This document shows positions 1,944 through 54,050 of a stretch of DNA of 64,000 bases, one piece after another. Position numbers and translations under genes: made by a program. The stretch is from Candidatus Parcubacteria bacterium (GTDB taxonomy: Bacteria > Patescibacteriota > Minisyncoccia > Minisyncoccales > JAGMDC01): assembly GCA_023131895.1 (NCBI GenBank), contig JAGLYZ010000002.1, forward strand, positions 43,364-107,363. The letters run 5' to 3'. The notes under the pieces are model-generated. The model searched no databases. It was not told the DNA's origin and worked only from the letters and a program-made list of their open reading frames with translations. The number at the start of each line of letters is the position of its first letter. Position 1 is the stretch's first letter.

Positions 1944-3323
1944 CTATACAATAGCTATCTGTGGATAACTTAATTTATATATATCCCCTGCTCCCATTAT
2001 GATTAGAATTTCTTTATTCTTTAGATTTTGTTTCAAATAATTCTCTGCTTTTTTAATAGATGAGACATACTTGACTTTTTCTCCATATGGATATTTTTTC
2101 AAGTTTTTATTAATTTTTTTAACTAATTTCTCCGAATCTACTTTACTTTTAATCGCCTTGTCTTCTCTGCCGGCAACATCATAAATGTCGGTAATAATCA
2201 ATCTATCAATCCAGCCTTTATTCAATGCCTCTTTAAAAACCTTAACAAAATCATCAAACAAATAATAAGTTCGCTGATATTGATGCGGCTGAAAAACACA
2301 CCAAATTTTCTGTTTGGAAAACTTTTCCCTGCATGCTTTTAAAGTTGCTTTTACTTCTGTTGGATGATGAGCGTAATCAGATATAATTGTTATTTTCTGC
2401 GTAATTCCGCGTTTAGTTCTGTGTAACTCCGCGTGCGTGAGCTCAAAACGGCGCCATGTTCCTTTAAATTCTGACAATGCTTGATAGCTAACTTTATCTG
2501 CAATTTTTAAAGCTCTAGCTATGGTCAAAGCAGCTAAAGCATTATAAATATTATACTCCCCTGGAATTTTCAGAATTTTTCTTAATTTCTCCTTTTCTTT
2601 TTTTTGATTTAATGAAAATACACAGGTCTGACCTGTGTATTTTTTGACTTGGGATGTCAAGATTTGAGCAATATTCTTATCATCTTTGTTAATTACTAAT
2701 ACTCCATTTTTTGGCAAATGTGATATAAACTCGTCAAAAGCTTTTAAGATATTCTTTAAGTTTTTATAATAATCCAAATGCTCCTTTTCAATATTGGTAA
2801 TAACAATAATCTTAGGCCAATAATTTAAAAATGATTCTTCATGTTCGCAGGCCTCAATAATTAAGTATTTGCTTTTGCCCATTCGAAAATTTGAATTCCC
2901 AAATTCTTTTAATTTTGTTCCAACAATTACTGTCGGGTCAAACCCGGCTTTTATTAAAACCAAAGCAGCCATTGCTGTGGTTGTGCTTTTGCCATGGGTT
3001 CCAGTTATGGCAATGGTAGAATACTTTTTTGTTAATTCTCCTAATGCCTCTGGATAAGACAAACATTTAATGCCCAGATTTTTCGCTTCTTTTAATTCTG
3101 GATTATCTTCTTTTACTGCCGGACTATAAATAATTAAATCATGATTTTTGGTTATATTTTTTGCGTATTGACCTATGATAATTTTAATCCCTTTTCTTTT
3201 CAGTAATTTAGTAATTTCAGAAGATGCTAAATCAGAGCCAGAAACTTGCTCGCCTTTTGCTAAACAATATTGAGCTAAAGCAGAAACGCCAATTCCGCCA
3301 ATTCCGATAAAATGAATTTTCAT
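1944..3323 (-). CDS. murC: UDP-N-acetylmuramate--L-alanine ligase
   Basis: N-terminal GIGGIGVSALA dinucleotide-fold motif and Mur ligase P-loop GTHGKSTTT. The 459-aa length is typical of MurC. Confidence 0.9.
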   Translation of the reverse strand: MKIHFIGIGGIGVSALAQYCLAKGEQVSGSDLASSEITKLLKRKGIKIIIGQYAKNITKNHDLIIYSPAVKEDNPELKEAKNLGIKCLSYPEALGELTKKYSTIAITGTHGKSTTTAMAALVLIKAGFDPTVIVGTKLKEFGNSNFRMGKSKYLIIEACEHEESFLNYWPKIIVITNIEKEHLDYYKNLKNILKAFDEFISHLPKNGVLVINKDDKNIAQILTSQVKKYTGQTCVFSLNQKKEKEKLRKILKIPGEYNIYNALAALTIARALKIADKVSYQALSEFKGTWRRFELTHAELHRTKRGITQKITIISDYAHHPTEVKATLKACREKFSKQKIWCVFQPHQYQRTYYLFDDFVKVFKEALNKGWIDRLIITDIYDVAGREDKAIKSKVDSEKLVKKINKNLKKYPYGEKVKYVSSIKKAENYLKQNLKNKEILIIMGAGDIYKLSYPQIAIV

Positions 3324-5016: not shown

Positions 5017-5622
5017 ATGGTAGACTTTGAAAAGAGAAAAGAAATAGTAGAAAGATTGAGATTCTACGAGGAAGGTATAGTATATTTAATGGATCGTCCC
5101 CAGTACTATCGATTTATAAGATATAAACTAAGAAACGCATTATCTACAAGAAAAGAAGAATTAGAGAAAACAATAAAGAAATTTAACATAAGCAAACACC
5201 GCGAAGAAACTTTGATTGAATTATTGGAAGAATTGGTAGATTTGGCGATGATAGAAAAAATTGACCTGATTATTGGCAACAACAAAAACATAGAAAGAAA
5301 AGTGAAAAAAATACTGAATACCACTATTTCTTATATAAGAAATATGAAAGGCGTCAGGATAAATCTGAAAAATGAATTCGGAATAAATGTAGATGACTAT
5401 TTTGAAAAGTTTTTCAGGAACTGCCAAAATACTTTTGAGATGATTAGTATAAAACCAAAAATAGAAGTTTTGACAGAGAGAATAGAAAACGAGAAATTAT
5501 TACCAGAAATCGACAAAGACGAGGTTTTAAATCAAATCGCGAAAATAGAGACAAAAAGTCAACTCGAAAAATTCCGGAGAATAATGGAAGAAAGAATGGG
5601 GATAATAGTAAAGGTCTTTTAA
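5017..5622 (+). CDS. hypothetical helical protein, no recognisable motif
   Basis: 201-aa ORF with an AAGAGG RBS-like element upstream and a hairpin terminator downstream. Confidence 0.6.
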   Translation: MVDFEKRKEIVERLRFYEEGIVYLMDRPQYYRFIRYKLRNALSTRKEELEKTIKKFNISKHREETLIELLEELVDLAMIEKIDLIIGNNKNIERKVKKILNTTISYIRNMKGVRINLKNEFGINVDDYFEKFFRNCQNTFEMISIKPKIEVLTERIENEKLLPEIDKDEVLNQIAKIETKSQLEKFRRIMEERMGIIVKVF

Positions 5623-31521: not shown

Positions 31522-31558
31522 ATACGATAAGGATATGATATCCTTATCGTATTGTCAA
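31522..31558 (-). promoter_or_regulatory. 31-bp perfect palindrome (15-bp arms) overlapping a TTGACA-17-TATCCT promoter
   Basis: atacgataaggatatGatatccttatcgtat at 31522-31552. The -35 TTGACA is the reverse complement of 31553-31558. The palindrome covers the spacer and the -10. Confidence 0.55.
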
Positions 31559-31668: not shown

Positions 31669-31742
31669 TGGCTGCCGGGTTAGGATTCGAACCTAAATAG
31701 ACAGCTCCAAGGGCTGTTGTCCTACCGTTAGACGACCCGGCA
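31669..31742 (-). tRNA. tRNA, probably Gln (anticodon UUG), CCA encoded
   Basis: Hand-folded cloverleaf: TGCCGGG/TC/GTCT-AACGGTA-GGAC/A/ACAGC-CCTTGGA-GCTGT/CTAT/TTAGG-TTCGAAT-CCTAA/CCCGGCA/G/CCA. U1-A72 and G73 fit bacterial tRNA-Gln. Position 33 reads C, which is unusual. Confidence 0.75.
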
Positions 31743-35168: not shown

Positions 35169-36569
35169 ATGTTAAAGCTATACAATACTTTATCGCGGAA
35201 AAAAGAGGTTTTTAAACCAATAAAGAAAAAGCAAGTTGGACTTTATACCTGCGGACCAACGGTTTATTTTTATGCCCATATAGGTAATTTGAAAACTTAT
35301 ATTTTTGAAGATATTTTAAAAAAAATATTAGAGTATAACAGCTATAAAGTAAACCATGTAATGAATATCACTGATGTAGGCCATTTAACTTCTGACGCTG
35401 ATACTGGCGAAGATAAACTGGAAAAAGGCGCAAAAAGAGAAAAGAAAACTGTTTGGCAAATCGCTGAATTCTATACCAAGGCGTTTAAGAAAGATATAAA
35501 AGATTTAAACATTGAAGAACCAGATATTTGGATAAAAGCAACTGACACTATTAAAGACCAGATAAATTTAATCAAAATTTTGGAGAAAAAAGGATTTACT
35601 TATAAAATTGACGACGGCATTTATTTTAATACAGCAAAACTTAAAACTTATGGCCGATTATGGGGCAGAAAAAAGATATCAATGAAACCAGAAGCAAGAA
35701 TAAAAATGGCTGCTGGCAAAAAAAATCCTACTGACTTTGCTTTGTGGAAATTCAGCCCAAAAGGAGCTAAAAGGCAAATGGAATGGAAATCGCCTTGGGG
35801 GATTGGATTTCCTGGCTGGCATACAGAATGCGTGGTAATGGGAATTAAAAATTTAGGTGTTCCATTTGATATTCACTGCGGCGGAATTGATCATATTCTT
35901 ATTCACCATACTAATGAAATCGCCCAGGCAGAAGCTGCTTATGGAAAAATTTTAGCAAATTTCTGGCTGCATAGTGAATTTCTCGTTTTAGGCAAGGAAA
36001 AAATGGCAAAATCTAAGGGCAATATTGCTATTTTGGATGAGGTTATCAAAAAAGCATTTAATCCTCTTGCCTATCGCTATTTATGCCTTGGCGCGCATTA
36101 CCGCTCAAAACTAAACTTTTCATGGAAGGCATTAGAAGGAGCCCAAAATTCTTTAAATAATCTTTATCAAAAAGTAGCCGAATACTCCGAGAACCGTTCT
36201 CGCTCTGGAAGAATCAAGAACGATTCTTCCAAAATCAAAAATTATCAAAACAAATTTCTGGAATTTGTTAATGACGATTTGAATACGCCAAAAGCTTTAG
36301 CTTTACTCTGGCAAATAGTCAAAGCTCAAGAAATATCAAACAGAGAAAAGTATAAACTTTTATTAGATTTTGACAAAGTTTTTAGCTTGGACTTAGACAA
36401 AGTTAAAAAACTGCGAATACCTCAACAAGTTAAAAAACTTGTAGAAGAAAGAGAAAAATTTCGTGAGCAGAAAAACTGGAAAAAAGCAGATGAAGCTCGC
36501 AAAAAAGTTGAAAAAATTGGATATCAAATTGAAGATACTGAAAAAGGATATAAAATCTTGAAAAAATAA
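35169..36569 (+). CDS. cysS: cysteine--tRNA ligase
   Basis: HIGH motif AHIGNLKTY and KMSKS motif KMAKSKGN. Start set at [13 protein letters not shown], which is the typical CysRS N-terminus. Confidence 0.9.
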
Positions 36570-45808: not shown

Positions 45809-46648
45809 TTATTTTTGATTTACGATACTAAAATAAAAGTTTAAAACATCATTCATACATTCAACAATAAAACTCAAAAAATCGCTTCCATCGTGCTGGA
45901 CAGATGCTTTTTCTAAAGCATTAATATATATACCTCTTTTTTCTAAAGGAATAATAGTAATCGGATAACTGTCTCGCAAAAGCATTAAATTCATTAAAAG
46001 CCGGGCTGCTCTGCCATTGCCATCAGTAAAAGGATGAATATGAGTAAAGCAGAAATGAAATAAAACAGCTCTTTTTATAGGATGAATATCAATATCGTTC
46101 ATAATCTTTACAAATTCTTCCATTAATTCAGGAACTTTTTCTGGTCGAGGCAGAACATGACGAGAACCTTTAATAAATCGCTGGTTTTTTCTATAAAATC
46201 CAATGCCATATTCATATTCTTTTTCTAAATTTTCCATTGGTTTAAACAAAATTTTATGAACTTCTTTCATTAAATCTTCGTTTAAAGGATATTTTTCTTT
46301 TTCTTTAACAATTTCTTTGATAAACTTCAACGCCTTATTATATCCTAAAACCTCTAAATGATCTTTTAAGGGCTTGCCAGAGATAGTAATTCCTTTTTCT
46401 ATTACTAATGCGGTCTCACCCAAAGTTAAAGTGTTCCCTTCTATCGCCGTGGAATTATGAATTTCATCAATAGCAAGTTTTTCTTCAAGCGATTTTAACG
46501 ACCCTGCTGGCAAAGGCCTTAAAGAATTTAATTCCTTGTTTCGCTTTTCAATCTCTCTCAAATCCACCTTTTCAAAACTCGTCAGTACTTTATCCATTAT
46601 TTCCTTAAAATCCGCGACATAACTTTGTAATTGATTTTGATTAGACAT
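45809..46648 (-). CDS. Fic family protein (AMPylase-type) with an intramolecular inhibitory helix
   Basis: Fic motif HPFTDGNGRAARLL and an N-terminal inhibitory motif STAIEGN, i.e. (S/T)xxxE(G/N). Confidence 0.9.
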   Translation of the reverse strand: MSNQNQLQSYVADFKEIMDKVLTSFEKVDLREIEKRNKELNSLRPLPAGSLKSLEEKLAIDEIHNSTAIEGNTLTLGETALVIEKGITISGKPLKDHLEVLGYNKALKFIKEIVKEKEKYPLNEDLMKEVHKILFKPMENLEKEYEYGIGFYRKNQRFIKGSRHVLPRPEKVPELMEEFVKIMNDIDIHPIKRAVLFHFCFTHIHPFTDGNGRAARLLMNLMLLRDSYPITIIPLEKRGIYINALEKASVQHDGSDFLSFIVECMNDVLNFYFSIVNQK

Positions 46649-46651
46649 AGT

Positions 46652-47248
46652 CTATTTCTTTTCGCCTTGAAAATATTTTTCTTTCAAAAATTTACTAAAT
46701 TCTTGCATCTCTTTTTGGTAAACCAATATTCCCTCTTCTTGCTTGGCTTGAGGCAAATCCTCAACCACATCCGCTCCTTGATTAGTGATGGCAAAAGCCC
46801 CATAAATTCCCCGTGATTCTATATGAAGCCGAATATCAAAAGCAACTTCTCTATCTTTGTAAAACTCATCTAATAATTCAATCATTCTTGATTGGTGTTT
46901 TAGATTTTCTTTTTTCCATTCTTTTTGAACTGATTCACTCTCTTTTAAATTTTTTGGTTCAGGAGATTTAATCCAAACCCAAGGAGCCCTTGATTGATGT
47001 CCTTTTACCTCTATTTCTTCGGGGCGCTTGGCGGGATGTCCTTCACAAGATTGATATGTTGGAAATTCTAAAGCTTTTAGGGTAATTACAGTTTCTTTAA
47101 TCCCAGGATCAATAGGCCTTCCTTCGGCATCTGCTATTTTTTTAACTTCTTTCTCTATTTCTTTTAAGCGCTTTTCTTTTAAGGGTAACTTTAATTCTTG
47201 CGATTTCTCTTCGGCATTTTCAATTTTTGACTTGAATCTCTCTCGCAT
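46652..47248 (-). CDS. hypothetical 198-aa protein, first gene of the operon
   Basis: Ends 4 nt before the Fic start. No motif recognised. Confidence 0.55.
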   Translation of the reverse strand: MRERFKSKIENAEEKSQELKLPLKEKRLKEIEKEVKKIADAEGRPIDPGIKETVITLKALEFPTYQSCEGHPAKRPEEIEVKGHQSRAPWVWIKSPEPKNLKESESVQKEWKKENLKHQSRMIELLDEFYKDREVAFDIRLHIESRGIYGAFAITNQGADVVEDLPQAKQEEGILVYQKEMQEFSKFLKEKYFQGEKK

Positions 47249-47320
47249 AATTCTACTATATTTTTATTTCACTATTTGTTCTATTCTATCATAATTGAAC
47301 TAAAAATAAAGAGTTATAAC

Positions 47321-47343
47321 ACATCGAGGACAGTTCTCGATGT
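47321..47343. repeat. REP-like hairpin H1
   Basis: acatcgaggac-a-gttctcgatgt, 11-bp arms with one G-T pair. Confidence 0.75.
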
Positions 47344-47345
47344 AT

Positions 47346-48254
47346 TTATTTCTCTATATCTAAATATTCTTTAGCTTTTAACATATCTTTTTCAAAACTA
47401 TCTTGTAAAACATCAATCTCTTTATTATAAACATTTCTAACAGCTTCGGTTATAGTCTTTTTATTTTTAAACATTTCTTGCCAAAGTTCTTGTAATTTCC
47501 TTAATCCGTATTTTTTCTCAAGCCAAGGATAAACAAATCCCTCCCAACTTTTGATTTCATCTTCCCAATCTTTCCCGGTTCCTTCCCACGAAAAACTTTC
47601 GCTCTTTTTTTCTAATTCCTTTAATTCTTTTTGAGCTTGTTTAAATTGATATTTTCTAAAACGCTTATTGCCAAAATTTGTTCTAATTTTTTCTCCAATG
47701 AAAATAGAGACCATTTCTTGCTCCCATTTACTCTCTGATTCCTCATTACCAACTCCGCCAAAAAAAGGATGCAGATGCCCAAGTTCATGACCCACTCCGG
47801 AAAATATACCGCTACGAGCAGTGTTTTCAATCTCTTTTAAAAAAATTCCCTTTTTTTGTAATAAATCCTTATATTCTTCTATTTCCTCTTTAGTTAGAAC
47901 AGATACATACTTAAAAACACTTTTTGTCTCTTTATCAAAAGTTGCCGATTCCGGGGATATATTTGGAAAATTTTCCTTTAAGAATTTGGAATATTTTTCT
48001 TTATCTGAAAATAAATAGATTTTTGATTTCTCGCTTGCCATATCTCTTTTTGAACCCAATATCTTATCAACAAATTCTTTCACTTCATCAAATTTTTTCT
48101 CATCACCATCTTCTAAAATGTTTTTTATTTCATTATTATAATAAATCTCAAAATTTTCAGATGTTAACGGCCCTTCTTCAAAAATATCTTCTTTTTTTTC
48201 TGTCATTTCTTTTTCTTTTCCATATTCAATTTTTGGCGTAAATTTTTCCCTCAT
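47346..48254 (-). CDS. putative zinc metallopeptidase (HExxH)
   Basis: GVGHELGHLH motif in a 302-aa protein with no other recognisable motif. Confidence 0.5.
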   Translation of the reverse strand: MREKFTPKIEYGKEKEMTEKKEDIFEEGPLTSENFEIYYNNEIKNILEDGDEKKFDEVKEFVDKILGSKRDMASEKSKIYLFSDKEKYSKFLKENFPNISPESATFDKETKSVFKYVSVLTKEEIEEYKDLLQKKGIFLKEIENTARSGIFSGVGHELGHLHPFFGGVGNEESESKWEQEMVSIFIGEKIRTNFGNKRFRKYQFKQAQKELKELEKKSESFSWEGTGKDWEDEIKSWEGFVYPWLEKKYGLRKLQELWQEMFKNKKTITEAVRNVYNKEIDVLQDSFEKDMLKAKEYLDIEK

Positions 48255-48260
48255 AAATCT

Positions 48261-48289
48261 AACACATCGAGGTCTGTCCTCGATGTGTT
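48261..48289. repeat. REP-like hairpin H2
   Basis: aacacatcgagg-tctgt-cctcgatgtgtt, 12-bp arms. Confidence 0.8.
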
Positions 48290-48291
48290 TA

Positions 48292-49014
48292 TTAATTTAT
48301 TAATATTTCTTTAAAATTGGAATCGGCCATTTGTTTTTTGAGCAAAAGCCATTGTTTAATAAAATGACGGCTATTATCTACACTGCCCATTAAGTTAGCT
48401 AATAACTCTCTGTTTGTTAATGAAGGATAATTTTTCCTGCCTAAATAATCAGGATAACTTGACCATTTATAACTTTCTAAAAACTCAATAATTTCTTCCA
48501 AATTTTTAATTTTAATTCCTTGTTCTTTCCATTTAGGAGCTATAATGGCCACTGGATTCGTATGGATATAAACAAATAATGTTTTTAATTGCTCATCATT
48601 TTTCACAAGAACTGCTCTAAATTTTCCCCCGAAAACATGACCCTTTCTTTCGTATTTCTTATTATAATAGATTCCATAACCTGCTCCAATTTTTCTCATA
48701 AACTTACTAATTCCGCTGTCGCTAATTTGTTTGACTAATAAATGAACATGATTTGGCATCAAACAAAACGCCAAAATCTGTATCAATATCTCTCTTTTCT
48801 TTCTTATAACTTTGCCGAGAACTGTTCTCGGCAAAGTTTTAGCAGTCTTGTGACGATAACCTGAATCAATTGGATTTTCGTCGTTGAATTCAAATAAATT
48901 ATGAAGAAAACGAAAATAATCCTTTTCATTCCTAAAAAGATTCATTCCTTCAACTGCTCGAATAACAATATGGTATATTTCTTCATTTACTAACGGTGGC
49001 CTTTTAATTGGCAT
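48292..49014 (-). mobile_element. REP-associated tyrosine transposase (RAYT) / IS200-IS605 TnpA-like Y1 HUH enzyme
   Basis: HUH motif LMPNHVHLLV and catalytic Tyr region FVYIHTNPV. Flanked on both sides by palindromic hairpins. Confidence 0.8.
48808..48838. repeat. REP-like hairpin H3, inside the RAYT coding sequence
   Basis: aactttgccgagaac-t-gttctcggcaaagtt, 15-bp arms. It is in frame and encodes KTLPRTVLGKV. Confidence 0.85.
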
Positions 49015-49024
49015 ATTATTTTTA

Positions 49025-49051
49025 ACTGTCCGAGAACGGTTCTCGGACAGT
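49025..49051. repeat. REP-like hairpin H4
   Basis: actgtccgagaac-g-gttctcggacagt, 13-bp arms. Confidence 0.85.
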
Positions 49052-49052
49052 G

Positions 49053-50006
49053 TTATTTTACGAGGATCTCGGTGATGATGAAAAGGATGTAAACTCCTAA
49101 TAGAAATAGTCCTTCTTTTTTGGTAATTTTTCTGTCAGAACGGACAAATATTAAAAAGAATAAAGCAGCCATAATTAAGAAAAACCGAGCAACAGCGTAA
49201 GGAGAAAAACTAACGATTTCAATCGGACAAATAATAGCTACAATGCCTAAAACTAAGGTAGAGGCGACTATAACAACACCCATTAAATCGCCTAAAAGCA
49301 TCCAATTCTGGCCTTGCCGGGCTGAAAGCATGGTAAAATACGCTTCTGGAAAAGCATTGCCAATGGCAATAATAAACATTCCAATAAAAACCAAAGAGAA
49401 ATGAAAGGTCTCTGCAAAATAATAAGCTGATTCTACCATTCCTTTAGAGGCTGCGAGTAAAATAATTATTCCAAAGGCTACTTTCCCCAAGCCCTTAAAA
49501 AAATCTTTAAAACTTTTTGCGCTAATTTTATTCCCATTATATGTCTTGCTGAATCTTTCTTTTTTAGAGAAAAGCCAAAGAGCATAAAATATAAAAGCAG
49601 AAATCAAAACCATTCCATCGCCTCTTGATAAAACGCCGTCAAAAATTAGAAAAAGAGGCAAAAGAGCAATAATGAAAGTAAAGACCGCTGATGACTGAAC
49701 CATCTTGCTCCTAGCTGGTATTCCCTTGCTAATAAAAGCAGACAAGGCAACAATAACTGTTAAGTCAAGAAGATTGCCGCCAAGCGTATCTCCAAAAGAA
49801 AGCTGAGGAACTCCTTTAAAAGCAGATAGAATGCCAAAGAAAAAATTAGGCGCAGAGCCGGCAACAGCCACTATAAAAAAAGCAATGACAAATTCCCTTA
49901 ATTTTAAAAAACAAGCCATTTTTACTAATCCATCAACAAGCCACTTTCCAGACAAGAAAAGCAAGAAACAAGAAACAAGAAAAAGTAAAATATAAAAATA
50001 AAACAT
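49053..50006 (-). CDS. Ca2+/cation antiporter (CaCA, YrbG-like), paralog 1
   Basis: About 10 TM segments. Alpha-repeat motifs GDTLGGNLLDLT and GNAFPE. Clearly similar to the adjacent ORF. Confidence 0.8.
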   Translation of the reverse strand: MFYFYILLFLVSCFLLFLSGKWLVDGLVKMACFLKLREFVIAFFIVAVAGSAPNFFFGILSAFKGVPQLSFGDTLGGNLLDLTVIVALSAFISKGIPARSKMVQSSAVFTFIIALLPLFLIFDGVLSRGDGMVLISAFIFYALWLFSKKERFSKTYNGNKISAKSFKDFFKGLGKVAFGIIILLAASKGMVESAYYFAETFHFSLVFIGMFIIAIGNAFPEAYFTMLSARQGQNWMLLGDLMGVVIVASTLVLGIVAIICPIEIVSFSPYAVARFFLIMAALFFLIFVRSDRKITKKEGLFLLGVYILFIITEILVK

Positions 50007-50009
50007 AGA

Positions 50010-50981
50010 TTATTGAGTTAATAATTCACAAAATACAAAAGTAATATAAATGCCTAATAGAAACAGAGCTTCTTTTTTAGTAATTTTGCTATCAGTCCGA
50101 ACGCAGAAGAAAAAGAACAAGGCTGAAAGAATTAAGAAAAATCGAGCAACAGCAAAAGAAGAAAAATTAATTATTTCAATCGGACAGATAAAAGCAACAA
50201 TTCCTAAGACCAAAGTAGCAGGCACCATGATTGAGCCCATTAAATTGCCTAAAATCATTCCAGTCTCCCCCCTTTTAGCAGAGATAATAGCAAAATGTAT
50301 TTCAGGCAAAGCGTTTCCAAGGCCGACAATTAAAATACCGATTAAAGGCAAAGATAAATTCCAGTTCTGCGCGAAAAAAGAAGCTGACCTCACTATTCCT
50401 TCTGCTGCTACTAACAGTAAAACCAGGGATAAAATGACTGTAGTCAAGCTCTTTATAAAAAGCTTAAATCCTATAATAGTATCTTTTTTTTCTTCTTTTT
50501 CTTCTTCTTTATAAACTTTTTTAAATCTTTCTTTTTTAGAAAAGAGCCAGAAAACATAAAACATAAAAGCAAAAATTAACAAAATTCCGTCTCCCCTGCC
50601 TAATGTCCCGTCTAAAATTAAAACTATTGGCAAAATAGCTACAGCAATTGTAAAAATTGAAGAAGTTTGAATAAGCTGGCCTTTTGCAGGGATAAACGTT
50701 TTTGAAATTAAGACAACCAAAGCCACTGCTAATGTTAAATCAATAACATTGCCTCCCACTACATCTCCAAAAGAAAGCTCAGGAATTTTGTAAAGAGCTG
50801 AATTAATTCCGACAAAAAGATTTGGAACAGAGCCGGCAAAAGCCATAACAAAAAAAGCAACCACAAATTCCTTCCATTTTAAAAACCTGGCTATTCTAAT
50901 CAATCCTTCAACTAATAGCCTTCCTGACCAAAGAAGAATTATACAAGAAAAAACAAAAATAAAAGTATAAAAACCAATCAT
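50010..50981 (-). CDS. Ca2+/cation antiporter (CaCA, YrbG-like), paralog 2
   Basis: GDVVGGNVIDLT and GNALPE motifs. Tandem duplicate of 49053-50006. Confidence 0.8.
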   Translation of the reverse strand: MIGFYTFIFVFSCIILLWSGRLLVEGLIRIARFLKWKEFVVAFFVMAFAGSVPNLFVGINSALYKIPELSFGDVVGGNVIDLTLAVALVVLISKTFIPAKGQLIQTSSIFTIAVAILPIVLILDGTLGRGDGILLIFAFMFYVFWLFSKKERFKKVYKEEEKEEKKDTIIGFKLFIKSLTTVILSLVLLLVAAEGIVRSASFFAQNWNLSLPLIGILIVGLGNALPEIHFAIISAKRGETGMILGNLMGSIMVPATLVLGIVAFICPIEIINFSSFAVARFFLILSALFFFFCVRTDSKITKKEALFLLGIYITFVFCELLTQ

Positions 50982-53635
50982 GCTTTTTTAGTTATAAAAT
51001 ACCATTTCGTTGCCTCAATCAAGATTAAATTAGAAATTCCTATTCCTAAAATCAATTTCCAGTCATACCAATTTAACGGCACAGTCTTTAAAAGCGTTTG
51101 TAAAGCCGGAACATATAAAGCAGCCACCAAAGCTGTTAACCCAACAATCCAGCTCAAAATTAAAAGCTTATTAGAAAAAAGATTTATATGCCAAATATTT
51201 CTTCTTAAACTCTTGCAGGAAAAAATATAAAAAAGAGAATCAATAGCTAAAGCTGCAAAAATTATTGATTGAATATGCGTATGGCTATAACCAGAATATC
51301 TTAAAAGCCAAAAAAACAGCGTTAAAAGCAAAATATCTGTAATAATTCCAATAATAAAAATCAAGGCCTTCATCTCATTTGTTAAAAGAGAACTGCCTTT
51401 TTCCTGCGGTTTTCGCTTCATTAAGTCCTTTTCTTTCGGCTCAAAAGTTAAAGCTATGCTGGGCAAACCATCTTCAATTAAATTTATCCATAATATTTGA
51501 ACAGCAATAACAGGCAATGGCAGGCCTAAAACAATACTTACTCCAATTAAAATGGTCTCTGTGAAAGAACCTGAAAGCAGATAAGTAATGACTTTTCTAA
51601 TATTATCCATTATCGCCCTTCCTTCTTCTATTGTAGCTACAATAATATTAAAATTATCTGTTAATAAAATTAGATCTGAAACTTCTTTTGCTACATCAGT
51701 GCCTGAACCTAAGGCTATGCCAATATCAGCTTTTTTAAGAGCTGGAGCATCATTAATTCCGTCTCCTGTCATTGCCACCACTTCCCCTTTTCTCTGCCAT
51801 GCCTGAATTATTCTCAATTTATGTTTTGGTTCAACTCGGGCATAAACTTGAATGTCTTTGATTCTTCTTTCAAATTCTTCATCTGAAAGCTCATCTAATT
51901 CTTTGCCTTCTATAATATTTTTTTCTTTTATTCTAAAGCCTATCTCCTTAGCTACTGCTTTAGCAGTTAGTTTATGGTCTCCAGTGACAATCATTGGCCT
52001 CATACCCGCCTTTTTACAAATCCTTATTGCTTCTTTTGCCTCTTTTCTAACAGGATCTTTAAGAGCAATAAACCCTAAAAAAGTTAAATCCTTGACTTCC
52101 TCTTCCAAACTTTTTCCTTTTTCATTTTTACTTTTTACTTTTTTCTGTGCTGTTGCTACCACTCTTAGCCCTTTTTCAGTTAATTCTTCTAATTGTTTAT
52201 TTAATTTCTGTTTTAATCTATCATTTAACAGTCTATTTCTGTTTTTAATTAATAAATGAGAAGAAAGAGAAATTATTTTTTCAGGCGCGCCTGAAACATA
52301 CAAAATATTCCCTTTTTTGTTTTCCTGGCGCAAACTGGCAATAAATTTGTTTTCAGGATTAAAAGTAATCTCGTCAATTTCTAAATACTCTTTCTCCAAG
52401 CTTGGCTTTTCAAGACCAAGTTTTGCGCCAGCTGAAATAAACGCTTTATCAGTGGGCTCGCCCTGAATCTGCCAAACAGGATAAAGATCTTCAGGATTTT
52501 CTATAAATGCCTCACTGCATAAAACAGCGGCTTTTAAAGACAATGCCTTTGTTTTTTTATCAGAACTAATAATTTCTGCCACTTCCATCCTCCCCTCAGT
52601 CAGAGTCAATGTTTTGTCAGTGGCAATAATAGAAGTGCTCCCTAATGTTTCTGCCGCTACTAACTTCCTTACAAGGCCTTTTCTTTTCAGAATTCTCATC
52701 ATTCCAAGGGCTAAAATCACAGTTACAGCAATCGGAAGCCCTTCTGGAATAGCAGCCACAGCCACAGCCACAGCCACTTCAAACATCTCTAAAGCGCCTT
52801 GACCCTTAAGCAAACCTGCTAAAAAAATATAGACAGCAAAAATAGTAACAATCAGCCCGATTTTCTTACTCAAAACAGCTATCCTTTTCTGGAGAGGCGT
52901 TTTTTCTTCTTTAGTTTCTTTTATTAAATCAGCTACCCTGCCTATTTCTGTATCTTTGCCAATTTCAGTAATTACTGCTTTGCCTTTCCCGCCTTCTATC
53001 ACGCAACCCATATATACCATATTATCCCTGTCAGCTACTGAAGTTTTTTTAGGCAAAATATCTGTTGTTTTTTTAGCTCGCAGCCACTCGCCAGTTAAGG
53101 GCGATTCATTTATTTTGAGTCCGTAATTCTGGATTAAACGGCCGTCAGCCGGCACCTTGTCTCCAGCAGACAAAACAATAATATCTCCTGGCACAAGATA
53201 TTCAGCGTCAAGCCTTCTTTCTCTGCCTTCTCTGATTACTTTGGCTTTTATCTTAACTATTTTTTTCAATTCTCTTAACGCTTTAGACGCCTTGTTTTCC
53301 TGAAAATAGCCGATAACAGTATTAAAAATAATAGCAGCCATAATAACAATACTGTCAGTATAAAGTTTGAAAACAGCAGTGCCAATTCCAGCAAACACTA
53401 AAATATAAATTAAAGGGCTTTTAAACTGCTCAAAAAATATCCCTGCCTTAGATAGATGTTTTTCTTCAGGAAGCCTGTTTAGTCCAATTTTTTTTCGCCT
53501 CTCAACTACTTCTTCATTAGACAGACCTGTCTCTTCATCAGTTTCTAAAATTTTAACAACTTCCTGGATAGAAAAATTATGCCAGCTTTTTTTAGACATT
53601 ACTCTATTATAACAAACTTTAGTTTGATATACCAA
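50978..53635 (-). CDS. P-type ATPase, P2 (Ca2+-transporting) type
   Basis: TGE (PLTGEW), TM4 AIPEGLPIAV, phosphorylation site reading DKTLTLT, SGAPE, DPVRKEA, VTGDHKLTA and TGDGINDAPALKKADIGIA. The start is probably MSKKSWHNF at 53599. Confidence 0.85.
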   Translation of the reverse strand: MVYQTKVCYNRVMSKKSWHNFSIQEVVKILETDEETGLSNEEVVERRKKIGLNRLPEEKHLSKAGIFFEQFKSPLIYILVFAGIGTAVFKLYTDSIVIMAAIIFNTVIGYFQENKASKALRELKKIVKIKAKVIREGRERRLDAEYLVPGDIIVLSAGDKVPADGRLIQNYGLKINESPLTGEWLRAKKTTDILPKKTSVADRDNMVYMGCVIEGGKGKAVITEIGKDTEIGRVADLIKETKEEKTPLQKRIAVLSKKIGLIVTIFAVYIFLAGLLKGQGALEMFEVAVAVAVAAIPEGLPIAVTVILALGMMRILKRKGLVRKLVAAETLGSTSIIATDKTLTLTEGRMEVAEIISSDKKTKALSLKAAVLCSEAFIENPEDLYPVWQIQGEPTDKAFISAGAKLGLEKPSLEKEYLEIDEITFNPENKFIASLRQENKKGNILYVSGAPEKIISLSSHLLIKNRNRLLNDRLKQKLNKQLEELTEKGLRVVATAQKKVKSKNEKGKSLEEEVKDLTFLGFIALKDPVRKEAKEAIRICKKAGMRPMIVTGDHKLTAKAVAKEIGFRIKEKNIIEGKELDELSDEEFERRIKDIQVYARVEPKHKLRIIQAWQRKGEVVAMTGDGINDAPALKKADIGIALGSGTDVAKEVSDLILLTDNFNIIVATIEEGRAIMDNIRKVITYLLSGSFTETILIGVSIVLGLPLPVIAVQILWINLIEDGLPSIALTFEPKEKDLMKRKPQEKGSSLLTNEMKALIFIIGIITDILLLTLFFWLLRYSGYSHTHIQSIIFAALAIDSLFYIFSCKSLRRNIWHINLFSNKLLILSWIVGLTALVAALYVPALQTLLKTVPLNWYDWKLILGIGISNLILIEATKWYFITKKA

Positions 53636-53680
53636 ATTTCTGATTTGCTATAGCAATTTATATTTAGAAATAAAGTAAAG

Positions 53681-53710
53681 AAAAAGAGGGATTGATTAAT
53701 CCCTCTTTTT
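53681..53710. terminator. bidirectional hairpin terminator
   Basis: aaaaagaggga-ttgattaa-tccctcttttt. Confidence 0.7.
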
Positions 53711-53946
53711 CTTTAATTATTTTACTCTTCAGATTCTTCTTTTTTTTCTTCTGTTCCTCCTTCTTTAGCTTCTCCTTCTTCTGTTTCTGTCTCTTCCTGC
53801 ATTAAAAATTCTGTTGTCATTTTTTTAATTAGTTTATTATTTTATCAGAGAGAAAACAAGCCGACTACCTTTGTAAAATCTCTCATAATCAAATGATAGA
53901 TTAAACAAAAAACTTGTCAATACCAGTTATCCACAGGACGAAATAA

Positions 53947-53969
53947 CTACCGAGAACAGTTCTCGGTGG
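53947..53969. repeat. REP-like hairpin H5 next to tRNA-Glu
   Basis: ctaccgagaac-a-gttctcggtgg. Confidence 0.8.
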
Positions 53970-53975
53970 CTCTTG

Positions 53976-54050
53976 TGGCCCTGACGGGATTTGAACCCGT
54001 GTTACCAGATTGAGAATCTGACGTCCTAGACCAAGCTAGACGACAGGGCC
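53976..54050 (-). tRNA. tRNA-Glu (anticodon CUC), CCA not encoded
   Basis: Hand-folded: GGCCCTG/TC/GTCT-AGCTTGGTCTA-GGAC/G/TCAGA-TTCTCAA-TCTGG/TAAC/ACGGG-TTCAAAT-CCCGT/CAGGGCC/A. Confidence 0.85.

Follow-up and report, generated by a model that had tools for sequence, protein, structure and literature searches.

Why would a transposase-like gene carry, in frame within its own coding sequence, the same kind of palindrome that stands before its start codon and after its stop codon? The question is raised by a 64 kb stretch of DNA from Candidatus Parcubacteria bacterium (assembly GCA_023131895.1, contig JAGLYZ010000002.1), which is hereafter called the window and holds ~59 genes. Within it, a gene for a Y1 HUH protein, similar to the tyrosine transposases associated with repetitive extragenic palindromes (REPs) and known as RAYTs, is accompanied by a family of hairpins. 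The original prediction, made from the sequence letters, had described these as an active or recently active REP/RAYT system in a genome of the Candidate Phyla Radiation (CPR). Our preferred answer, which we consider probable while well short of certain, is that the locus is a REPtron/TIRtron-like module of a clade of Patescibacteria, in which a class-2 Y1 HUH protein is paired with hairpins that would be its cognate sites on single-stranded DNA (ssDNA). The components are as follows, hairpins being listed without strand.

48292 to 49014, minus strand: Y1 HUH gene (class-2 TnpA-Y1, RAYT/TIRYT-like), 240 amino acids (aa), Pfam Y1_Tnp
48742 to 48750, minus strand: HUH motif H89-V90-H91 in PNHVHLL, read from the sequence
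48568 to 48570, minus strand: Y149 of the YIHTNP motif, putative catalytic tyrosine (class-2 signature Y---NP)
49025 to 49051: upstream hairpin (UP), ACTGTCCGAGAAC-N-GTTCTCGGACAGT, 13-bp perfect arms, -12.7 kcal/mol, z -7.0
48808 to 48838: internal in-frame hairpin (IN), AACTTTGCCGAGAAC-N-GTTCTCGGCAAAGTT, 15-bp perfect arms, -15.5 kcal/mol, z -7.6
48261 to 48289: downstream hairpin (DN), AACACATCGAGG-TCTGT-CCTCGATGTGTT, 12-bp stem, -13.7 kcal/mol, z -8.5
47321 to 47343: satellite hairpin, ACATCGAGGAC-A-GTTCTCGATGT, one G.T/A.C stem mismatch, directly 3' of the HExxH gene (47346 to 48254, minus strand)
53949 to 53967: satellite hairpin, ACCGAGAAC-N-GTTCTCGGT, 9-bp arms, 8 nt 3' of tRNA-Glu(CTC) (53975 to 54050, minus strand)
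36187 to 36202: satellite core copy, CCGAGAACCGTTCTCG, in frame in cysS (35169 to 36569, plus strand), read YSENRSRS

The hairpins form one family. Its core, written CGAGRWC-N-GWYCTCG, was scanned for as CGAGRWCNGWYCTCG with up to two mismatches, which returned exactly six sites in the window; shuffled windows gave 0.30 ± 0.52 core matches, and none of 100 shuffles reached six. Five of the six copies lie within the 6.7 kb surrounding the Y1 gene, and as ssDNA the copies fold at -7.3 to -15.5 kcal/mol (z -3.8 to -8.5 against shuffles). All five palindromes of the original prediction were recovered, including the two that flank the Y1 gene, the one beside tRNA-Glu and the in-frame one with 15-bp perfect arms. 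Three details needed correction: the palindrome placed at 53947 starts at 53949, the copy at 48261 deviates from the proposed common core (CGAGGTC-T-GTCCTCG), and a sixth copy, in cysS, had been missed.

The three gene-linked copies stand very close to the landmarks of the gene. UP lies 10 nt 5' of the ATG (49014) and 1 nt past the stop codon of a Na/Ca-exchanger gene, and DN lies 2 nt past the Y1 stop codon (nearest codon base, 48292). IN encodes KTLPRTVLGKV (residues 59–69) in the linker from helix αA to strand β2, N-terminal of the HUH motif. As had been noticed earlier, the outer arms vary from copy to copy yet are complementary within each; the arm ACATCGAGG is common to DN and the satellite at 47321. 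Among the window copies, a T-rich tail in the sense direction is present solely at the satellite beside tRNA-Glu. The copy in cysS sits in a linker found to be hypervariable across 40 CysRS orthologs, and it was rejected as a length insertion since the linker of these orthologs is of similar length. An unrelated hairpin with a 10-bp stem (TGGAAGAATC-AAGAAC-GATTCTTCCA; 36206–36231) follows in frame 3 nt past this core copy.

The protein carries the marks of a Y1 transposase. It matches Pfam Y1_Tnp (PF01797) at E 2.7e-11, with 44.1 bits against a cutoff of 23, and this is the only Pfam domain at E ≤0.01, so that no helix-turn-helix (HTH) C-terminal domain is seen at that threshold. Residues H89, H91, Y149, H151, N153 and P154 are invariant in an alignment of 22 homologs, the window protein having GHVFGG where the family consensus is GHLFQG. 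A structure model has the topology β1-αA-loop-β2-β3(HUH)-αC, with the C-terminal 90 residues helical at low confidence and residues 51–68 at pLDDT (predicted local distance difference test) <50. The best Foldseek matches of this low-confidence model are TnpA of IS608 and ISDra2 together with the E. coli RAYT 4er8, at E 3e-5 to 1e-4 and target TM-scores of 0.53–0.66; IS200 TnpA is also among the best matches. The family profile gave weak matches to ISDra2 TnpA among PDB sequences (E ~0.01) with the linker mis-registered, and the fold search was more informative. Homologs number 922 in Patescibacteria, at ~235–245 aa, and those with a named source come from Parcubacteria, Nealsonbacteria, Minisyncoccales or Paceibacteria. 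A Minisyncoccales metagenome-assembled genome (MAG), referred to as L001, is syntenic with the window at 85% DNA identity over 9.5 kb. Between the two, the ratio of nonsynonymous to synonymous divergence (dN/dS) is 0.12 for the Y1 gene outside the linker and 0.09 for the neighboring Na/Ca-exchanger gene. The Y1 gene is under purifying selection. The prediction of a RAYT-like Y1 HUH module with associated hairpins in a CPR genome is supported; NCBI lists the exact protein under Candidatus Parcubacteria bacterium.

The three-hairpin layout recurs across relatives. We fetched 80 homolog loci with 10-kb flanks, labelled L001 onward, and scanned them for hairpins; the window and L001–L048, at ≥40% identity, are treated as the close loci (n = 49). 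In homolog loci, a palindrome equivalent to UP ends 0–35 nt before the ATG, one equivalent to IN lies inside the open reading frame (ORF) at nt ~165–230, and, in most of them, one equivalent to DN is placed between -8 and ~+13 nt relative to the stop codon. The internal 15-nt core is repeated (≥13/15) in both flanks of 32 close loci and in one flank of another 7, some of which are cut by contig ends; sharing among the three copies hence extends to at least 39 of the 49. Mismatched cross-locus pairings of cores mostly agree at 7–11 of 15 positions. The hairpin sequence varies among lineages and is common to the copies within a locus, with types that include CGAGAAC, CGGGGTC, CAGAGACC, CGGGAAG, ACGCCGCC and GCTAGGTT. 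Examples by locus are:

L001: CACTACGAGAAC.GTTCTCGTAGTG, three copies
L010: CGGGGTC.GACCCCG, three copies
L017: AATGTAACGCCGCC.GGCGGCGTTACATT
L029: ACTACGGGGTC.GACCCCGTAGT, three copies
L032 and L042: CAGAGACC..GGTCTCTG
L039: TGATYGGGAAG.CTTCCCRATCA
L045: GGGCGAGGTCTGCCCTCGCCC, five copies

When hairpins are aligned on their centers, the apex has the consensus C-G-R-G-R-W-C / N / G-W-Y-C-Y-C-G, and the outer ends are A/T-rich. Arms of up to 17–21 bp are perfectly complementary despite sequence drift. The copy-specific complementary flanks had earlier been taken to hint at a palindrome-generating insertion mechanism. Comparison across the family gave that idea no support: in most loci, the outer arms are common to the three copies, and in L009 the copies even have a mismatch at one and the same stem position, which indicates that arms are copied and not made at insertion.

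More distant homologs of ~222 aa (L051–L066, Daviesbacteria/Levybacteria-type) have just the two flanking hairpins, CACACC.GGTGTG or CCGATCCCGGATCGG, the internal copy appearing to be absent, and their linker is of similar length and unrelated sequence. Internal copies are also found in the Microgenomates-type loci L069, L070 (Woesebacteria MAG) and L078 (Microgenomatus). A 38% identical homolog on a contig of 2957 bp labelled Thermodesulfovibrionales (L067) has the upstream hairpin AAGGGGGTCGGACCCCCCT and the internal hairpin GTGGGGGTCAGACCCCCAC; either the layout reaches beyond Patescibacteria or this short contig was mis-binned. Structural variants within the same population were rejected, since all four contigs that encode the identical protein show one layout. 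In L005, L006, L009, L020 and L048, the 3' arm of UP ends 0–3 nt from the start codon or includes it, and in L020 (...GTCAGTTTTATG) the A and T of the ATG fall within the stem. No room is therefore left for a Shine-Dalgarno sequence in these five loci, and the start may be leaderless or occluded by the hairpin.

What is conserved in the internal core is the DNA and not the peptide that it encodes. Its 15-mer, CGAGAACAGTTCTCG, is identical in the window and L001, and the region is read CCG AGA ACA GTT CTC GGC (PRTVLG) in the former and TAC GAG AAC AGT TCT CGT (YENSSR, within YENSSRS) in the latter; dN/dS across the linker (residues 46–76) is ~1.2 between the two. Of the best metagenomic homolog proteins that have a recognizable anchor (n = 114), 60 contain xR[TSN][VF]Lx and 24 contain E[NK]xSR. 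These are two translations of one palindrome, and the signature of the internal hairpin is accordingly present in at least 84 of the 114. The residues before R and after L fit reverse-complement pairs (T..V, S..D, P..G, A..A) in 48 of the 60. One DNA palindrome is thus kept through changes of reading frame in a gene under purifying selection, which argues that selection or conversion acts on DNA structure.

The same in-frame position in at least 39 of 49 close loci, along with the signature in at least 84 proteins, also makes the internal copy an ancestral feature of the family. By these sequence comparisons it is ancestral to a clade of Patescibacteria, and a self-insertion is not supported. 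Nor does KTLPRTVLGKV represent a length insertion, as had been supposed. Hairpin-free relatives keep a linker of similar length and unrelated sequence, whereas hairpin-bearers keep the DNA and not the peptide, so that the segment is not a peptide conserved in homologs without the hairpin. It is possible that the internal copy is self-regulating, its putative role in the original prediction. As a point of N-terminal module shuffling, the internal hairpin was rejected: identities of the N- and C-terminal parts are correlated (r = 0.71), with no pair departing from this by more than ~3 sd.

How old, and how mobile, is the module? UP, IN, DN and the tRNA-adjacent hairpin occupy orthologous positions in the window and L001, where the last of these (5048–5072) has longer arms of 12 bp. 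The outer arms differ between the two genomes, and the stems are paired in both via compensated change or replacement. The satellite at 47321 is absent from L001, in which most of the HExxH gene is deleted. The Nealsonbacteria MAG JACPGX01 has at least five divergent paralogs (L005, L006, L009, L014 and L020) at 62–76% protein identity, each with its own arms that recur among the copies of that paralog; in other genomes, within-genome paralogs share 43% to 73% protein identity. Near-identical Y1 copies within one genome were not seen, paralogs ranging from 43% to 76%. Orthologous hairpins in a syntenic relative at 85% DNA identity and this lack of near-identical copies are at odds with a system that is active or recently active. 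Repeated in dozens of relatives with lineage-specific hairpins, the layout instead points to an old conserved variant and not to recent self-insertion.

Beyond the three canonical positions, 18 extra copies were found in 600 kb of flanks. With one AT-rich chance match set aside, 13 of 17 lie ≤2.5 kb from the gene, and nearly all extra copies are intergenic, at gene 3' ends. A few satellites bear the arms of a paralog from another contig, as in the flank of L009, which has CTGACGAGAAC..., of L020 type. The window has three satellites in its 64 kb, and REPIN doublets were not seen in the window or the 600-kb flanks. In the sequence scanned, the module shows low-level REP-like seeding and does not look like a high-copy REP population, nor does it look like an active insertion sequence (IS).

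These properties place the module among known systems without making it identical to any. Class 2 of TnpA-Y1 proteins was defined by the Y---NP motif, a separate REP family goes with each tnpA-REP, and subclass 2.1 combines a median length of 238 aa with the motifs NHVH, FQ and Y[IV]HLNP and was reported to have no REP-like structures nearby (Quentin et al. 2018; PMC6006769). TIRYT genes, the transposase genes of TIRtrons, are flanked by inverted repeats with GGGGWSAS (Di Nocera et al. 2013; PMC3733652), and Group 1 RAYTs have weakly repeated flanking 16-mers only (Bertels et al. 2017; PMC5581495). TIRtron/TIRYT, TnpA-Y1 subclass 2.1 (PMC6006769) and RAYT Group 1 (PMC5581495) denote the same lineage. 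By motif comparison, the window protein resembles it in length (240 versus ~238 aa), in NHVH, in F-Q/G in place of W-Q, in Y-I-H-x-N-P and in a WSSY tail. Low intragenomic identity and flanking repeats at fixed short distances from the ORF are further likenesses. GGGGWSAS fits the apex in relatives (CGGGGTCAGACCCCG; L029, L010 with CGGGGTC.GACCCCG, and L036), and, if relaxed to GRGRWSNS, it also fits the family consensus GRGRWCNG; the window core GAGAACNG departs from GGGGWSAS at 2 of 8 positions. Unlike in TIRtrons, each flank here is a complete and usually perfect palindrome, rather than one arm of a terminal inverted repeat, and a third copy lies in frame in the ORF. Unlike subclass 2.1, the module has hairpins, which were reported absent near those genes (PMC6006769), and its protein lacks a Pfam HTH-like C-terminal domain (Bac_DnaA_C, HTH_23 or HTH_28). 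Its CPR/Patescibacteria host falls outside the sampling of the surveys of TIRYTs and subclass 2.1.

With the REPtrons of E. coli (YafM, 4ER8), Pseudomonas and Stenotrophomonas, the module shares a class-2 Y1 HUH protein with Y---NP, cognate flanking palindromes, an own palindrome family per paralog and satellites mostly at gene 3' ends. Perfectly palindromic REPs are likewise a known group, and cognate enzymes have been shown to process them (Corneloup et al. 2021; PMC8266576). It differs from REPtrons in having no 5' GT[AG]G guide tetranucleotide, far fewer dispersed copies and no REPIN doublets in the sequence scanned, a REP_Tyr_transpos score below cutoff, and a protein ~80 aa longer. In-frame REPs have been described as a striking trait peculiar to subclass 2.4 genes (PMC6006769), which occur in Cyanobacteria and Bacteroidetes and correspond to RAYT Group 4. 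There too, a cognate palindrome lies in its own ORF, with the frame kept, in a peripheral variable region. In the module described here, however, the copy is at a different site, in the αA-β2 linker before the HuH motif, and holds one fixed clade-wide position while matching two flanking copies. The REPs of subclass 2.4 are of a GTAG "double-foot" type, and its proteins, of ~194 aa, have WQ and YIxNNP.

The IS200/IS605 elements IS608 and ISDra2, from which the model of ssDNA hairpin recognition comes, also combine the Y1 HUH fold with hairpins near both gene ends. The module departs from them in having Y---NP instead of Y---Q, no near-identical copies, no tnpB, syntenic inheritance, and perfect in place of imperfect palindromes. 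Finally, Rickettsia palindromic elements and intragenic REPs are found in frame in functional genes, including those for aminoacyl-tRNA synthetases (PMC3733652), as is the cysS copy. The Rickettsia elements are longer and add 20–50 residues, whereas the cysS copy lies in a linker that was variable to begin with and has not lengthened overall. A full-text search of a limited collection of papers returned none describing Y1 or hairpin modules in CPR bacteria. On sequence evidence, then, the module appears to be an old, conserved variant of known REP/RAYT-type systems.

As such a module, the locus could work as follows. When replication or transcription exposes ssDNA, each palindrome would fold, giving a conserved apical stem and a lineage-specific basal stem. 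By homology with the TnpA of IS608 and ISDra2 and with E. coli TnpA-REP, a Y1 dimer would bind these hairpins and cut and rejoin the adjoining ssDNA. Activity in cis or templated repair may keep the copies of a locus alike through concerted evolution, and satellites would occasionally be seeded nearby, at gene 3' ends, beside a tRNA gene and, rarely, within housekeeping genes at variable linkers. Tolerance of the internal copy would follow from the lack of constraint on the linker peptide, predicted to be a surface loop, and retention of that copy as DNA would keep the gene physically linked to a cognate site.

Several observations weigh against this interpretation. The structure model is of low confidence overall (AlphaFold, mean pLDDT 57), and the NCBIfam model REP_Tyr_transpos scores 45.8 bits, under its cutoff of 80. 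Among 101 hairpins, no conserved GT[AG]G foot was found 5' of the stems; TAC/GTA lies inside the stems of 30. Dispersal is low, at ~0.3 copies per 10 kb of flank. The outer arms of the window's own three copies are unlike each other, so homogenization is not universal. The relative orientation of UP and DN was opposite in 15 loci and the same in 7 (p = 0.13, not significant), and a fixed orientation, whether inverted as in REPtrons or direct as in ISs, was rejected on these counts. The 7-1-7 palindromic core would equally suit a dimeric protein that binds double-stranded DNA (dsDNA).

Other explanations were weighed against the same evidence. Leader hairpins of IS200 keep expression low. An RNA-level element might do likewise for a potentially harmful nuclease, with the 5' copy occluding the start codon or ribosome-binding site, the 3' copy stabilizing or terminating the transcript, and the internal copy acting as an RNase or translation checkpoint. 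The position of UP, which abuts or includes the ATG in several loci (L020, for example), and that of DN next to the stop codon would suit this, and REPs elsewhere serve as 3'-untranslated-region elements (PMC3733652). We regard it as unlikely. The stem mismatches comprise 12 G.T and 14 A.C, with no sense-strand G.U bias, which fits an element acting at the DNA level; both orientations occur; and the three gene-linked copies have no sense T-tract, the terminator scan flagging them on the antisense strand only. Rfam offers no matching family, with two tRNAs only at gathering scores and, at E ≤1, sub-threshold microRNA-like hairpin noise on the palindromes. The lineage-specific arms shared by the three copies are left unexplained by an RNA-level model.

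An autoregulatory operator, to which we also give little credence, would have the 7-1-7 core bound as dsDNA by a dimeric regulator, either the C-terminal part of the Y1 protein or a host factor, that represses transcription from sites at the start, inside and end of the gene. The apical core is indeed a perfect dyad, conserved while the arms vary, and UP, 0–35 nt before the ATG and overlapping the start codon in several loci, is where a promoter or operator would be expected; HTH-like C-terminal domains have been reported for subclass 2.1 (PMC6006769). However, an operator requires sequence and not self-complementarity, and arms of up to 17–21 bp stay perfectly complementary while drifting. 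Satellites at the 3' ends of unrelated genes, by a tRNA gene and in cysS also speak against an operator, as does the window protein, in which Pfam finds no HTH domain.

That the locus is an active IS of IS200/IS605 type, with UP and DN as the subterminal left and right ends of a transposing unit of ~0.8 kb, is very unlikely. The Y1 transposase fold, the tight bracketing by hairpins and the several copies per genome in some MAGs are what such an element would show. Its copies within a genome, however, share 43–76% protein identity, the unit is at the same place in the syntenic window and L001, the tyrosine motif is Y---NP and not the Y---Q of TnpA-IS200, no tnpB lies alongside, and dN/dS is typical of a host gene; the NCBIfam model transpos_IS200 gives 19.6 bits, under its cutoff of 55.

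It is more improbable still that the hairpins are ordinary intrinsic terminators, alike by resemblance only. Four copies do lie directly 3' of a stop codon or tRNA gene, and the terminator scan calls four copies terminator-like. Yet three of the four calls are on the antisense strand, two copies lie within ORFs, and the hairpin sequence co-varies with the Y1 gene across the 80 loci. Only ~4 of the 59 gene ends in the window have the core, others using unrelated hairpins (10149, 38641 and 53676). Generic terminators following most genes, an outcome that would have undone the original prediction, were ruled out by the gene-end counts and the strand of the calls. Lastly, the internal palindrome can hardly be a by-product of selection for a PRTVLG-like peptide, for although R-T-V-L is common in the homolog alignment, close relatives have the same DNA core in another frame (YENSSRS), linker dN/dS is ~1.2, and the flanking residues obey the reverse-complement rule in 48 of 60 proteins.

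The REPtron/TIRtron-like module thus remains our preferred reading, and it admits an extension that is possible and, in our view, doubtful: that domesticated HUH modules with three hairpins make up a so far undescribed class in CPR bacteria, of which the in-frame hairpin is the obligatory third cis-site and no mere tolerated passenger. If this were true, an enzyme that binds or nicks its own coding strand would couple expression or gene integrity to single-strandedness, in the form of self-limiting autoregulation or of a programmed on/off rearrangement among the UP, IN and DN palindromes. One templated process would then keep the arms palindromic and the three copies identical. Further, hairpins might mark exchange points for single accessory genes, with HExxH, GNAT-like, MBL-fold and metallophosphoesterase-like candidates.

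A cassette-like appearance was seen at four loci, in which one accessory-type gene lies between the post-stop hairpin and an extra copy of the same hairpin:

L004, 7135 to 7689: accessory gene between hairpins
L032, 4503 to 5147: accessory gene between hairpins
L036, 2246 to 2882: accessory gene between hairpins
Window, 47321 to 48289: accessory gene between hairpins, here the HExxH gene (302 aa)

The genes of the other three loci are, by sequence reading, GNAT-like (177 aa), MBL-fold (196 aa) and metallophosphoesterase-like (188 aa). Comparison of 45809–48254 in the window with 10712–10842 in L001 shows that three window genes are missing from the latter: one for the HExxH protein (302 aa), one for a protein of 198 aa and one for a Fic protein (match to PADLOC SoFic at 1.6e-37). 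The HExxH and 198-aa proteins have the common N-terminus MRE[KR]F.[PS]KIE, and the remnant left in L001, MREKF..PKIEN, has a small foreign hairpin inserted. Excision of a hairpin-bounded cassette was rejected, the loss of HExxH in L001 being an imprecise deletion that keeps the first codons and does not fall at the hairpins.

Other features of the window were recorded alongside. Upstream of the module (49053–53635) are two tandem Na/Ca-exchanger paralogs and a P-type cation ATPase, and further upstream, in 53676–53818, are a strong bidirectional terminator with an 18-bp stem (53676–53715) and a tiny acidic ORF, MTTEFLMQEETETEEGEAKEGGTEEKKEESEE, read by eye and called as a 32-aa gene. A murC-like gene (1944–3323, minus strand) has an in-frame 14-bp perfect palindrome with a 1-nt loop (AAAATACACAGGTC.GACCTGTGTATTTT; 2615–2643), read KKYTGQTCVF, at a place where alignment with MurC proteins of known structure gives no clear sign of an insertion. 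With an apex of GGTC.GACC and a foot of TACAC, this palindrome looks like hairpins of other Y1 lineages (L040, L037), and a second paralog of the Y1 gene, located elsewhere in this genome, may be the one to which it belongs. Another 15-bp perfect palindrome with a 1-nt loop (ATACGATAAGGATAT.ATATCCTTATCGTAT; 31522–31552), of family-like build and unrelated core, lies ~115 nt downstream of tRNA-Gln (31669–31742, minus strand) and ~35 nt upstream of a 73-aa ORF.

REP/RAYT systems serve as the textbook example of co-evolution between a domesticated transposase and short palindromes; work on them has dealt almost exclusively with Proteobacteria and Cyanobacteria. The results here extend hairpin association to a subclass-2.1-like Y1 lineage in the CPR, subclass 2.1 (Group 1) being the largest Y1 subclass, and reveal that a large branch in Patescibacteria with subclass-2.1-like motifs (the window locus and 80 relatives) has cognate hairpins, arranged very regularly: one ahead of the start codon, one in frame and one past the stop codon. 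This provides a second case, positionally distinct and clade-wide, of a RAYT-type gene with its own palindrome in frame, and the internal copy offers a clean natural experiment on the conservation of DNA structure in a coding region. HUH enzymes serve as ssDNA tagging tools, and the module provides a compact, testable set of HUH substrates, with one enzyme and three identical sites in 0.8 kb. How CPR bacteria, with their reduced genomes, retain perfect palindromes is a further question that the module may help to address.

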